Positions 25,306-62,892 of a stretch of 64,000 nucleotides of DNA are shown in pieces. Under the pieces are notes generated by a model, which was given only the letters and a program-made list of their open reading frames with translations, had not been told where the DNA came from and made no database searches. The stretch covers positions 15,776 through 79,775 of the forward strand of contig JANLFO010000002.1 of assembly GCA_024653205.1 (NCBI GenBank), written 5' to 3'. Each line of letters opens with the position of its first letter. The stretch's first letter is position 1. Both the position numbers and the translations under genes were made by a program. The stretch comes from Clostridia bacterium (GTDB lineage: Bacteria; Bacillota; DSM-521; Neomoorellales; SLTJ01).

Positions 25306-25869
25306 ATGCGGCTCTTTGCGGCCGTGGAACTGCTGCCGGAGCTCAGGCAGGCCTTGAGGAAGCTGGTGGGCCGTCTGGCAATGTCGCAGGCGGATGTGAA
25401 GTGGGTAGAAGGTGAAAACTTCCACCTTACGCTCCTATTCCTGGGAGAAGTGGATAGGGAGTTGCTGCCTGAGCTTAGTCGGGCGCTGGCCGAGGCCGCC
25501 CGGGGCGTTCCCGCTTTTCACCTGAGGTTGGAAGGCCTCGGCACCTTTCCCGGCCCGGGGCGGCCGCGTGTGATCTGGGTGGGCGCAGACGGCGGCGGAG
25601 AGTTGGGCCGGCTTCAGAGCCGGGTGGTCGAGCAGGCAGGGCCTTTTGCCGAGCGACCGCCGGAGCGTACGCCTTTCCACCCCCATATCACCCTGGGGAG
25701 GGTACGCTCGCCTCGTGGCCTGGCAGGGCTAAAGGCTCTTCTAGAGGAATACCGGGAGGAGAAGGTTGGGGTACAGGAGGTTTCGGGCTTTTCGTTGGTC
25801 GAGAGCCGGCTTTACCGGAGCGGGCCGGTGTACACCACCGTCGACCATTTCTGGTTGGAACGGGCGTAG
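25306..25869 (+). CDS. thpR: RNA 2',3'-cyclic phosphodiesterase (2H family, LigT/ThpR)
   Basis: Two HxT/S motifs (HLTLLFLG and HITLGRV) in a 187-aa ORF. Confidence 0.85.
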   Translation: MRLFAAVELLPELRQALRKLVGRLAMSQADVKWVEGENFHLTLLFLGEVDRELLPELSRALAEAARGVPAFHLRLEGLGTFPGPGRPRVIWVGADGGGELGRLQSRVVEQAGPFAERPPERTPFHPHITLGRVRSPRGLAGLKALLEEYREEKVGVQEVSGFSLVESRLYRSGPVYTTVDHFWLERA

Positions 25870-25896: not shown

Positions 25897-26130
25897 GCCG
25901 GGTTATCCCCGGTTGCGGGCTGGCAAGCGGTACCGGGTGCTTCTGAGTACATTGGCACCTTGCCGGATGCCCCGGAGGCGGGCCGCAGGCCGTGGACGGC
26001 CGAGGCGGCGGGGCGCCACGGTCGGCGCCTCCGCCGCCCGCCGGAGGGCGAAGCCCAAGCCCTAGTAGGTCGGCAAGATAACAGTGCGAACGGGGAGCAC
26101 CCGGTACCGCCCGTGGGAAAGTGGGGATCC
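25897..26130 (+). repeat. Long-hairpin repeat element, copy A
   Basis: Left-end motif GGTTATCCCC (25901-25910). Perfect 15-bp closing stem 25927-25941 / 26096-26110. 42-nt block 26087-26128 is identical to 60967-61008. Confidence 0.8.
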
Positions 26131-26166
26131 ACCAGGCTGCCTCGCCGAGGGATCCCCACTTTTTCG
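26117..26166. terminator. Bidirectional terminator-like hairpin at the copy A / copy B junction
   Basis: 13-bp perfect stem AAAGTGGGGATCC (26118-26130) / GGATCCCCACTTT (26150-26162), 19-nt loop. An A-run lies 5' and TTTTT lies 3' (26160-26164). Confidence 0.5.
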
Positions 26167-26374
26167 AGGGGAGTGCTGGTTTTGCCCGAGTACCTAAAGC
26201 GTGCCGGGTACCGAACTAGGTGAGAGCGAGCGCGGAGGCCGGTCGGAGGCCAAGGATGGCCGGAGCCGCGCCGGCGCCATGGACGGGTTCTTGCGCGGGA
26301 AGCCGGCCGAAGCGCGAAGGTCGAACCCTAGTTTGGTCGGCTAAGCGACCGGTACGAGGGGCAAACCAGCACTG
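26150..26374 (+). repeat. Long-hairpin repeat element, copy B
   Basis: Arms 26171-26193 and 26352-26374 pair (AGTGCTGGTTT, GCCC, GTAC). The interior aligns block by block with copy C. Confidence 0.75.
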
Positions 26375-26386
26375 CCCCGAACGCCG

Positions 26387-26416
26387 TTGACACCTTTTAG
26401 CAGGGTAGGATATAAT
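26387..26416 (+). promoter_or_regulatory. Consensus sigma-A-type promoter of recA
   Basis: TTGACA (26387-26392), 18-nt spacer, TATAAT (26411-26416). Confidence 0.7.
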
Positions 26417-26454
26417 CCGAGCGGGTTCAATCCGTGCCGGGTAGGGGGATGAAG

Positions 26455-60614: not shown

Positions 60615-60691
<77 letters not shown>

Positions 60692-60729: not shown

Positions 60730-60744
60730 GCGCCGGTCAGCCTG

Positions 60745-61014
60745 ACGTATCCCCACTTTCGAGTTAACTTGAGTTGACTGGCGGTACCGGGTGCTCGCCT
60801 GAGTACATTGGCAACTCGCCGGGAACCGAACTTGGCGAGGACGAGCGCGGAGGCGGGCCGGAGGCCACGGACGGCCGAAGCCGAGGAGCGCCATGGACGG
60901 CGCTTCCGAGGGGAGCCCGCCGTAGCGCGAAGGCTGAGCCCTAGTTTGGTCGGCGAGGTGACAGTACGAACGGGGAGCACCCGGTACCGCCCGTGGGAAA
61001 GTGGGGATAACTCA
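60745..61014 (+). mobile_element. Long-hairpin repeat element, copy C, with TIRs and a flanking direct repeat (MITE-like, no ORF)
   Basis: TIR TATCCCCACTTTC (60748-60760) / GAAAGTGGGGATA (60997-61009). 17-bp perfect inner stem 60780-60796 / 60975-60991. Flanked by GCCGGTCAGCCTG at 60732-60744 and 61015-61027. Confidence 0.7.
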
Positions 61015-61027
61015 GCCGGTCAGCCTG

Positions 61028-61230
61028 GGTGGTCCCCGGTTTCGGGCCGACAAGCGGTGCGGAGGAGCTTCCCTGAGTACGTTGGCACCTTGCCAGGTGC
61101 CGAACTTGGCGAGAAGTGGCTATGGACGGGTTCTTCATCGGGGAGTCTGTCGGAACCCGCAGTTCAACTGCAGTACGGTCGGCGACGGACGCGAGCGGTA
61201 GCAGGTGCAGGCGGGCCATTGCGGGAAGGT
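61028..61230 (+). repeat. Long-hairpin repeat element, copy D (degenerate)
   Basis: TCCCCGGTTTCGGG (61033-61046) is a left-end-like motif. CTGAGTACGTTGGCACC (61073-61089), GAACTTGGCGAG and ATGGACGGGTTCTT are shared with copies B and C. The middle of the core is deleted. Confidence 0.55.
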
Positions 61231-61278: not shown

Positions 61279-62892
61279 ATGGCAACACTGAGCTTCTTCG
61301 GCGCGGCCAGGACGGTCACCGGAGCCTGTTTCTTGCTGGAGACGCGCACCAGCAAAGTACTGCTAGACTGCGGTCTGTTTCAGGGGCCCAGGGCAGTAAG
61401 GGAGCGCAACTATCAGCCGTTTCCGTTCAACCCCGCCTCGATCGATTTCCTGCTTCTCACTCACGCCCACATCGACCACAGCGGCCTCATTCCCAAGCTC
61501 TACCGTCACGGCTTCAGGGGAAAAATCCTCGCCACCGCACCCACCTGTGATCTCTGTGAGGCGCTGCTGCCGGACAGCGCCCACGTCCAGGAAATGGAGG
61601 TGGAACGCAAGAACCGGAAGCTGCAGCGGGCGGGCCGCCCCTTAATTCAGGCCATTTACACCTCCGAGGAGGCCTATCACTGTCTGCGTCTCTTCCAGCC
61701 CGTAGAATACCGGCGGGTACTCGGCCTCACTCCGGAAGTAAAGGCCTGCTTCTACGAAGCCGGCCACATCCTGGGTTCTGCCAGCATCAAGCTTTGGGTA
61801 AGGGACGGGGACGAAGAGGCTACGCTTTTGTTTTCCGGGGATCTGGGGCGGGTGGACCAGCCGCTGGTAAACGATCCCCACCCCCCGGAGGGTGCGGATT
61901 TCGTGATAATGGAATCGACCTACGGCAACCGGCTGCACCCTCCGGGCGGCGACGGCCTGGGGCGCCTGGCGCAGATTATTGCCGAGACCCACCGTCGAGG
62001 CGGAAACGTGCTCATCCCCGCTTTCGCCGTCGAGCGCACGCAGGACGTGCTTTATGCTCTGGGCCGGCTTCTGGATTCGGGGGCTTTGGACCCGGGGCGG
62101 GTATACCTGGACAGCCCTCTGGCGGTGGCAGCTACGGAGATTTTCTGCCGCTACCTTGCCCAGCTGGATGAGGAAACCCAGATCATGGCCGTGGAACGGG
62201 GAGGAACCTGTCCCTTCCTGCTGCCGGGAATGAAGCTGTGCCGTACCTCCGATGAATCCCGGGCCATCAACCAGGTTTCCCAAGGAGCGGTCATCATCGC
62301 CGCCAGCGGCATGTGCGACGCCGGCCGGATAAAGCATCACCTGAAACATAATCTCTGGCGGCCGGAATGCACCGTGGTCCTGGTCGGCTATCAGGCGGAG
62401 GGAACCCTCGGCCGGCGACTGGCAGAAGGGGAGAAGGAGGTAACCATTCACGGAGAGCCGGTGGCGGTGCGGGCGCGCATTGAGAAGCTGGATGATTTTT
62501 CCGCCCACGCCGATCAGAACGGATTGGTTTCCTGGGTGGCCGGCCAGCGCCGGCGTCCCCGTTTGGTCTTTCTGACCCACGGAGAAGAGGAGGCCCTGAA
62601 CACCCTGGCGGCAAGGCTGGAGGAGGAACTGGGGCTTTCGACGGCCATACCCGACTGGAAAGAGCAGGTGCAACTGTCCCCGGAGGACGCCGGCGGGGCG
62701 AGGGAAACGGAAGTGATGGCCGCAGGAGAGCAGCCGGCCGAAGTTGGCTCCAACCTTCAGGAATTCCAGGCAGAACTCAATCGCTTTAAAGGCGCCCTTG
62801 AACGGTGGCAGCGGGAGGAAGTGCGGGCCGGACGCTACCAGGCCGCCCTGGCCCGGCTCCGGAGGTGGCAGGACGAGCTACGGAATGCATAG
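61279..62892 (+). CDS. MBL-fold beta-CASP family hydrolase (CPSF73/Ysh1-like RNA-metabolising nuclease)
   Basis: FLLETRTSKVLLDCG...LLLTHAHIDHSG...ESTYGNR...FSAHAD, with a roughly 80-aa coiled-coil-like C-terminal tail. Confidence 0.85.
   Translation: MATLSFFGAARTVTGACFLLETRTSKVLLDCGLFQGPRAVRERNYQPFPFNPASIDFLLLTHAHIDHSGLIPKLYRHGFRGKILATAPTCDLCEALLPDSAHVQEMEVERKNRKLQRAGRPLIQAIYTSEEAYHCLRLFQPVEYRRVLGLTPEVKACFYEAGHILGSASIKLWVRDGDEEATLLFSGDLGRVDQPLVNDPHPPEGADFVIMESTYGNRLHPPGGDGLGRLAQIIAETHRRGGNVLIPAFAVERTQDVLYALGRLLDSGALDPGRVYLDSPLAVAATEIFCRYLAQLDEETQIMAVERGGTCPFLLPGMKLCRTSDESRAINQVSQGAVIIAASGMCDAGRIKHHLKHNLWRPECTVVLVGYQAEGTLGRRLAEGEKEVTIHGEPVAVRARIEKLDDFSAHADQNGLVSWVAGQRRRPRLVFLTHGEEEALNTLAARLEEELGLSTAIPDWKEQVQLSPEDAGGARETEVMAAGEQPAEVGSNLQEFQAELNRFKGALERWQREEVRAGRYQAALARLRRWQDELRNA

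Follow-up and report, generated by a model that had tools for sequence, protein, structure and literature searches.

Results

Long-hairpin copies in the window

We examined a 64,000-nucleotide (nt) stretch from the assembly GCA_024653205.1 of a Clostridia bacterium (contig JANLFO010000002.1, positions 15,776 to 79,775), referred to throughout as the window. The spacer between thpR, a LigT/2'-5' RNA ligase family gene with its stop codon at 25869, and recA, which starts at 26434/26446, is nearly filled by two copies, A and B, of a long-hairpin element (the identities of both genes were confirmed by Pfam), and two further copies, C and D, are sited between a minus-strand tRNA-Pro(GGG) gene and, downstream, the plus-strand gene for a beta-CASP/metallo-beta-lactamase RNase (61279-62892). 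Together with relatives outside the window, whose loci are given L numbers below, these copies almost certainly represent a structured dispersed repeat, and the pair of hairpin loops at its apex probably relates it to TwoAYGGAY, an RNA motif held in Rfam as RF01731. The features of the two window loci are as follows.

25899 to 26130, plus strand: copy A, a long hairpin with its closing stem P1 at 25927-25941 / 26096-26110; nhmmer E = 9e-49
25988 to 26001, plus strand: copy A apex hairpin 1, GGCC-GUGGAC-GGCC, loop 25992-25997
26013 to 26028, plus strand: copy A apex hairpin 2, GCGCC-ACGGUC-GGCGC, loop 26018-26023, the sole loop of the family without GGA
26116 to 26164, plus strand: A-B junction hairpin in the minimum free energy (MFE) structure, GGAAAGTGGGGATCC (26116-26130, the 3' outer arm of A) pairing with GGATCCCCACTTTTT (26150-26164)
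26171 to 26374, plus strand: copy B, a long hairpin with its closing helix at 26171-26193 / 26352-26374; nhmmer E = 1.3e-51
26248 to 26261, plus strand: copy B apex hairpin 1, GGCC-AAGGAU-GGCC, loop 26252-26257
26274 to 26290, plus strand: copy B apex hairpin 2, GCGCC-AUGGAC, loop 26279-26284, 3' arm disrupted in the window (GGGTTC)
26387 to 26416, plus strand: recA promoter, TTGACA-18-TATAAT, sigma-70-type, 12 of 12 positions matching (0.1 expected), between B and recA (26434/26446-27468)
60615 to 60691, minus strand: tRNA-Pro(GGG) gene, diverging from copy C
60742 to 61013, plus strand: copy C, the full-length type, with P0, side hairpin and P1; nhmmer E = 4.9e-81
60863 to 60876, plus strand: copy C apex hairpin 1, GGCC-ACGGAC-GGCC, loop 60867-60872
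60888 to 60903, plus strand: copy C apex hairpin 2, GCGCC-AUGGAC-GGCGC, loop 60893-60898
61027 to about 61200, plus strand: copy D, a decayed remnant retaining the 5' arm and AUGGAC (61121-61126), with hairpin 1 and the 3' closing arm lost

All coordinates and sequences quoted in the original prediction were verified, including the arms of copy B and the closing stem of copy A (GCGGTACCGGGTGCT at 25927-25941, partner AGCACCCGGTACCGC at 26096-26110), and comparison of the copies confirmed both a 42-nt block identical between the loci (26087-26128 = 60967-61008) and the shared interior blocks, which follow the same order. The closing helix of copy B is unlike that of A and C in sequence. For copy C, the 15-bp stem had been placed correctly (P1, 60781-60795 / 60976-60990), but the element reaches further out than had been thought, past a small side hairpin (∼60762-60779) to an outer helix, P0, in which ATCCCCACTTT (60749-60759) pairs with AAAGTGGGGAT (60998-61008). 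Copy A has only weak remnants of the outer helix (25905-25910 and 26123-26128) and is missing 19 nt present in B and C; the 19-nt indel that had been noticed between A and C was evident in the alignment. Because copy D is a remnant without closing stem or hairpin 1, matched by nhmmer only in part (E = 2e-09 and 0.0095), the two loci do not carry the same ordered pair, contrary to what had been proposed. A search of the window with the family profile in nhmmer returned no copies beyond A to D. The notion that the copies encode a conserved peptide, already thought unlikely, was rejected on account of the frameshifting indels (19, 4 and 1 nt) that separate them.

Between the two copies of the recA locus, GGATCCCCACTTTTT serves as the 5' outer arm preceding copy B, and the 3' arm of the A-B junction hairpin terminates in a run of five U residues; as modelled, this hairpin may act as a terminator, and it was absent from the terminator-scan results. 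The window version of copy B differs from that in two public assemblies of the same locus (L003 and L004), where the 3' arm of hairpin 2 is intact (GGCGCC): the window reads GGGTTCTTGCGCGG at 26285-26300, against GGCGCCTAAGCGG at 10980-10995 of L003/L004. This broken window hairpin resembles copy D (GGGTTCTTCATCGG), and the difference could stem from variation between strains, from gene conversion among copies, or from a chimeric assembly.

Folding and covariation

Copies A, B, and C folded markedly better than shuffled sequence (z-scores −6.81, −6.93, and −10.41, respectively; 0 of 200 shuffles folded as well), with near-perfect helices of 15-17 bp and more, and copy D folded no better than its shuffles (z = −0.68). 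The RNAalifold consensus, derived from the same alignment of 12 related copies in which its pairs were counted, contains 69 pairs, 16 of which show a pair-preserving change on both sides. When the 3' partners were slid by 1-3 columns, the share of paired cells fell from 95.5% to 33-44%, the number of double-change pairs from 16 to 1-6, and the covariation score from 0.153 to 0.03-0.05; none of 500 column shuffles reached the observed values. In P1, U-A/A-U/C-G is replaced by A-U/G-C/C-G in L013, by G-C/A-U/C-G in L072, and by other combinations elsewhere, while hairpin 2 changes from A-U to G-C in four copies and helix P3 from C-G to U-A in three. These compensations are several independent events. 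An inner-hairpin difference that had been read as compensatory (AGCGCC/GGCGCT versus GGCGCC/GGCGCC) is genuine, being column pair 150/168, with A-U in 7 copies and G-C in 4. The element is thus a long imperfect hairpin of ∼70 pairs maintained by compensatory substitutions, and the central proposal of homologous long hairpins was borne out by RNAalifold and the pair-counting tests. Conservation is highest at the apex and lowest in the outermost helix.

The structured strand is the plus strand, whose folding energy in each of the 12 copies is 4-19 kcal/mol better than that of the complement. Consistent with this, G-U/U-G cells outnumber A-C/C-A cells (25 versus 10), and two pairs alternate, in about half of the copies, between G-C and G-U.

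A dispersed repeat family

We found 12 distinct copies at unrelated loci in the source metagenome-assembled genome (MAG), a related Moorellales MAG, and six metagenome contigs. Copies beyond the window were thus found when sought, and a simple local duplication, which the original prediction had set as its alternative, is ruled out. Relatives were retrieved with a pattern consisting of the two apex hairpins, which in the window matches A, B, and C only; scanned against one genome per species, it returned at least 120 loci, many of them chance GC-rich matches, so that copy numbers per genome are lower bounds and the MFE-based classing of these loci is crude and noisy. In Moorellales bacterium Kamch4316-2DMB-05, full-length relatives 90-95% identical to C lie at at least four different loci. 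One has an acyl-CoA-synthetase-like gene and a dehydrogenase gene as its neighbours; another is flanked by hpf with an unknown gene on one side and by secA on the other; a third separates serA from serS; and a further one lies downstream of an enoyl-CoA hydratase gene. A stricter pattern run over the whole metagenome collection yielded six more copies only, indicating that the family is rare.

Pairwise comparison of loci showed that similarity is limited to the element (210-290 nt), with unrelated flanks and sharp boundaries. The element is GC-rich and measures ∼215 nt without the outer helix and ∼272 nt with it. Identity to C was 99% for L128, then 97, 95, 94, 91, 90, 88, 87, and 84%, down to 76% for copy A, a distribution made up of a young subfamily (94-99% identical) and older diverged copies. 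At L125 (70-450), the apex position of a B-type element is occupied by an entire C-type element, P1 to P1, around which the B-type arms still pair, making this a nested copy. The ends of C-type elements, CTGAGTTATCCCCACTTTC and GAAAGTGGGGATAACTCAG, are inverted repeats (outer arms 13-19 nt). Direct repeats flank C (CCGGTCA) and L128 (GAGCC), and none were seen at L036, L121, or L130.

The genes of the window also occur on GCA_029907445.1 and on contig Ga0417229_000063 of the JGI metagenome 3300038743. The NCBI MAG contig JARYLW010000021.1 (L002, position 1) begins inside copy C, the usual sign of an assembly break at a repeat. Filled and empty sites could not be paired, as no flank of any relative's locus matched the window or its extensions. 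Copy C had no match in plasmid and phage collections; six matches of the looser twin-loop pattern in viral contigs were set aside, since they resemble coding or chance matches and lack the twin-hairpin fold. The family is rare, lineage-restricted, and intergenic.

The apex and its probable relation to TwoAYGGAY

The apex of the element is a three-way junction formed by an enclosing stem and two adjacent hairpins, GGCC-[A/G]NGGAY-GGCC (hairpin 1) and GCGCC-AYGGAC-GGCGC (hairpin 2). In the C type, hairpin 2 is lengthened through a tandem G-A internal loop (CC-GA-GGA ... UCC-GA-GG in copy C). The hexaloops, (A/G)NGGAY, are closed by C-G pairs. GGA is kept in 23 of 24 loops, the adjacent N varies (C, U, or A), and the 3' positions of the loops show a strong preference for C or U; the pairs that close the loops do not vary. 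Most relatives have ACGGAC plus AYGGAC, with the variants GUGGAC (A and L127), AAGGAU (B), and ACGGUC (A).

This arrangement is that of TwoAYGGAY: two terminal loops of AYGGAY type (ACGGAC and AUGGAC in C), on adjacent hairpins that are enclosed by P1 in the MFE structure, in the consensus, and in the bracket pattern of the cmscan alignment. The alignment of C to RF01731 recovers the same enclosing stem and two GGA-loop hairpins. The discoverers of the motif described its closing P1 as "often very large (e.g., 24 base pairs)" (Weinberg et al. 2010). No window copy reached the Rfam gathering threshold for RF01731 (43 bits), and at gathering threshold cmscan of the whole window returned tRNA-Pro only. 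The statement that the element matches nothing known did not survive, in that its apex has the TwoAYGGAY architecture and this was the only Rfam family touched, at 17.9 bits; other matches seen in E-value mode (BjrC68, snoRNAs, sX7, and others) were rejected as short chance matches. The apex pattern also retrieved a genuine TwoAYGGAY RNA (L048, a Lachnospiraceae MAG, 85.5 bits) and a Thermincola homologue, L098, which scored 34.3 bits on TwoAYGGAY (model positions 1-168) and matched the family hidden Markov model over 124 positions (E = 3.5e-09). On these two scores, L098 bridges the window family and TwoAYGGAY.

Orientation and transcription

The element is co-oriented with its downstream gene at 10 of 11 scorable loci (the exception being L129). 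At seven loci the upstream gene shares this orientation, and at three (C, L126, and L130) it diverges. At L036, the TGA of the upstream open reading frame (ORF) falls within the element's initial bases, and past the element come a ribosome-binding site and a start codon; if the genes there form one operon, the copy would have to be transcribed as an intercistronic segment. L013 and L072 look similar in arrangement. From such arrangements we infer that the element would be co-transcribed with its neighbours, in the sense direction.

The original prediction placed the copies directly upstream of a gene. A plus-strand gene does follow both loci, but the recA promoter between B and recA had been overlooked; because it lies downstream of B, A and B are outside the recA leader, and a recA leader or riboswitch reading was rejected on the strength of this consensus promoter. 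It lies 13 nt past the end of B and precedes the recA start by ∼20-30 nt. Comparable promoter-like sites follow the element by 9-13 nt at L121, where the site precedes secA, and at L128, where it precedes ybxF-rpsL; the element ends repeatedly just before a −35 box. Copies at these three loci (recA, L121, and L128) would be 3' untranslated region (UTR) or read-through sequence and not leaders. At L130, a promoter-like site in the right orientation lies ∼27 nt upstream of the element. The promoter scan found no promoter upstream of A, B, or C, and no U-tract terminator follows the element ends. The tRNA-Pro(GGG) gene has its own promoter-like site (TTGACG-17-TACAAT at 60729-60701, minus strand), and its divergence places C outside the 3' UTR of any co-oriented upstream gene.

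Twin-loop RNAs in other phyla

In a Phycisphaerales MAG (L037, 840-1400), at least four GCC-AYGGAC-GGC hairpins are followed by a strong terminator, and this hairpin RNA lies ∼235 nt upstream of a gene scoring 53 bits on Pfam CsrA; it is a Planctomycetota candidate for a Csr-type sponge RNA or an autoregulatory leader. Four-hairpin RNAs of the same loop kind occur in Desulfosporosinus, Dendrosporobacter, and a Bacillota MAG. In Desulfobulbaceae and other Desulfobacterota MAGs, the twin-hairpin unit forms tandem arrays with a period of ∼54 nt, and in the Desulfoarculaceae MAG KA05 at least 12 copies of it, nearly identical, are dispersed. These Desulfobacterota loci (L111 4990-5560; L029 3620-3720; L007, L021, L041, L043, L061, L073, L090, L093, L105, and L119) all fall short of an Rfam threshold. 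Long hairpins in Halieaceae, Pantoea, and Pseudoxanthomonas (L019, L028, L040, L074, L109, L113, L115, L120, and L124; L015, L027, L034, L078, L083, L101, and L102) keep the twin AYGGAY apex constant while their outer arms differ wholly between copies; they occur as inverted pairs at L028, L113, and L124 and are unannotated by Rfam at threshold. Thermincola likewise has a long hairpin around twin loops with outer arms of unrelated sequence. Pattern matches in Actinomycetota and Bacteroidota were dismissed because they look like chance coding matches.

Discussion

In our best reading, the window copies would belong to a proliferating RNA module. That the element acts as RNA on the plus strand is, in our view, fairly likely, and CsrA is the leading candidate for its partner, although our confidence that the element binds CsrA falls somewhat short of even. 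Each element presents two C-ANGGAN-G hexaloops with GGA motifs ∼25 nt apart. From CsrA SELEX (systematic evolution of ligands by exponential enrichment) work and the RsmE-hcnA structure, C-ANGGAN-G is reportedly the high-affinity site, and a GGA spacing of ∼25 nt is within the range that a CsrA dimer can bridge. Rfam places TwoAYGGAY in the Csr-Rsm clan, CL00106, and Gardner and Eldai proposed it, on motif grounds, as a CsrA-binding small RNA (sRNA) of Clostridia (PMC4333381). According to a recent survey (PMC13443453), CsrA is often present in Bacillota, Planctomycetota, and Pseudomonadota and is scarce in Bacteroidota. The structured pattern matches listed fall in Bacillota, Pseudomonadota, Desulfobacterota, and Planctomycetota, and for all of these but Desulfobacterota the survey reports CsrA to be common. 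With the reservation that the pattern imposes both loops, the matches outside the family support CsrA circumstantially.

We propose a composite reading, to which we assign a probability of about 0.5: the element is a proliferating, sense-transcribed RNA module presenting a twin CsrA-type site. It would be transcribed along with neighbouring genes, and a dimeric RNA-binding protein, CsrA or another, would clamp the two loops with a single dimer. Each copy would then either titrate the protein, as a decoy, or bring the host transcript under the protein's control, as a handle. The long stem would shield the RNA and keep its loops projecting outward, and the family would have spread by duplication or transposition. 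Being mobile does not preclude the element from functioning as RNA.

Several observations weigh against this composite. With promoters downstream of the element at A/B, L121, and L128, transcription there would require read-through from the upstream gene; no plus-strand promoter lies upstream of C, whose neighbour is the divergent tRNA-Pro gene; and no consistent promoter or terminator bounds a discrete RNA among the loci examined. Because nearly all genes of the window are on the plus strand, the orientation bias could equally reflect a fixed orientation relative to replication. By tblastn, no csrA was found in the window or in the fetched loci of the lineage. The apex pattern imposes both loops on distant loci, so that loop conservation across phyla is partly circular, and the covariation is based on 12 related sequences only. 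GGA is replaced by GGU in one loop of A, and hairpin 2 of window copy B is broken, so some copies may be decaying. As to TwoAYGGAY, the best window score is the 17.9 bits of copy C, over model positions 45-113 of RF01731, and copies A and B have no match to it at E up to 10.

A rival explanation is a purely selfish, non-autonomous mobile DNA element of the miniature inverted-repeat transposable element (MITE), repetitive extragenic palindromic (REP), or palindrome-associated transposable element (PATE) kind, in which the hairpin would act as DNA and the apex hairpins would be recognised, for example as single-stranded DNA, by a transposase whose gene lies elsewhere. In its favour, the copies are scattered over unrelated loci and their homology ends sharply, the C-type outer arms are inverted repeats of 13-19 nt, a young 94-99% identical subfamily stands beside older copies, there are nested (L125), truncated (D), and tandem copies, one assembly breaks at the repeat, and the fixed orientation could reflect strand-specific insertion relative to replication. 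We nonetheless consider this explanation clearly unlikely, as there is no consistent target-site duplication, no transposase was noticed beside any copy (ORF lists were read by eye and no profile search was run), and plasmid and phage collections hold nothing similar. In addition, the apex is conserved most and the outermost helix least, the reverse of usual terminal inverted repeats; many changes are from G-C to G-U, which on the other strand are C-A mismatches; and the apex module is found again in several phyla, in contexts resembling those of sRNAs (tandem arrays, a terminator, a csrA-adjacent site). It is also improbable, in our estimate, that the element is a generic hairpin like those of REP and ERIC (enterobacterial repetitive intergenic consensus) sequences, that is, a highly stable stem-loop, located in 3' UTRs and between cistrons, that would stop 3'-to-5' exonucleases, shield promoters against read-through, or be a site of RNase III processing, with loops lacking a specific partner. 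In E. coli, intercistronic REP hairpins stabilise upstream mRNA segments, and every copy of our family is intergenic, seven loci are downstream of a co-oriented gene, three copies (recA, L121, and L128) lie just before the −35 box of the next gene, helices of 15-17 bp and more are near-perfect, and the A-B junction hairpin ends in a U run. A plain stabiliser, however, needs neither invariant loops nor a three-way junction, and in this family GGA persists in nearly every loop and the apex is the best conserved part; moreover, the copies at C, L126, and L130, with divergent upstream genes, are not 3' UTRs, and the element itself is followed by no U-tract. Both explanations leave the conservation of apex loops rather than termini, and the recurrence across phyla, unaccounted for.

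A narrower alternative accepts the structured RNA but has the twin loops bind something other than CsrA, either another dimeric protein or GUCCRU in another RNA through loop-loop pairing. In the literature searched, TwoAYGGAY has no experimentally shown partner, the tblastn result for csrA given above points the same way, and the C/U bias at the 3' end of the loops, together with the invariant closing pairs, exceeds the constraint of a bare ANGGA core. Yet the loops fit exactly what is said to be the CsrA/RsmE consensus, Rfam files the motif in the Csr-Rsm clan, and one multi-hairpin relative adjoins csrA. We regard a partner of another kind as very doubtful.

The composite reading can be carried further, to a self-propagating CsrA decoy: a mobile module that would seed twin high-affinity sites intergenically in a thermophilic Clostridia-class lineage, as one branch of a far larger cross-phylum class, for the most part unannotated, of "twin C-ANGGAN-G hairpin" RNAs. 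We think this extension somewhat unlikely. If true, the class would span long-hairpin (Halieaceae, Xanthomonadales, Pantoea, Thermincola), array (Desulfobulbaceae), four-hairpin (Firmicutes), and csrA-adjacent (Planctomycetota) forms. Well-established RNA antagonists of CsrA come mainly from Gammaproteobacteria, and the known CsrA antagonist of Firmicutes is a protein, FliW; under the decoy reading, twin-hairpin RNAs would supply the RNA antagonists missing outside Gammaproteobacteria.

TwoAYGGAY has been an orphan motif since 2010, with CsrA binding as its one hypothesis. Here its twin-loop apex survives on a very different, thermophile-grade scaffold and proliferates in the manner of a mobile element. 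Current Rfam thresholds miss the window family and many similar modules in other phyla, which suggests that the real range of TwoAYGGAY is much wider than annotated. The family also provides concrete short RNAs that can be tested against CsrA; if the loops bind nothing, it remains a clear-cut case of an intergenic, structured repeat at which MAG assemblies break.

Comparison with known systems

Like REP/BIME (bacterial interspersed mosaic element), ERIC, BOX, and Correia elements, the window element is short, non-coding, multi-copy, and intergenic, its hairpins would be co-transcribed with neighbours, and decayed and young copies coexist. Unlike them, it lacks GTAG or other known end motifs, conserves the apex and not the termini, and has no REP-associated tyrosine transposase (RAYT) or other transposase known with it; it is also larger than REP.

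With the Csr/Rsm sponge sRNAs (CsrB, CsrC, and RsmX/Y/Z; CL00106), it shares GGA in C-ANGGAN-G hairpin loops, a spacing that fits one dimer bridging two sites, and several copies per genome. It differs in having two sites per unit and not 5-22, in being without an evident dedicated promoter or terminator, and in carrying its sites within a long hairpin scattered in the spacers of other genes; there is no sequence homology, and protein binding by the window element is an inference.

The closest counterpart is TwoAYGGAY (RF01731). The window hairpin is far longer (∼70 pairs, two or three additional helices, and internal loops that are conserved) and far higher in GC, is multi-copy and dispersed, with subfamilies, nested copies, and remnants, and some of its loops depart from AYGGAY (GUGGAC, AAGGAU, and ACGGUC). 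In common with TwoAYGGAY, it has two adjacent AYGGAY-loop hairpins inside an often very large P1 and, in the C type, a tandem G-A internal loop in the second hairpin, and both occur in Clostridia, are non-coding, and are unassigned in function. The window copies are thus non-members by the Rfam criterion and, by architecture, a long-stemmed, GC-rich TwoAYGGAY variant: an already described orphan motif in a new variant form and not a new kind of element.

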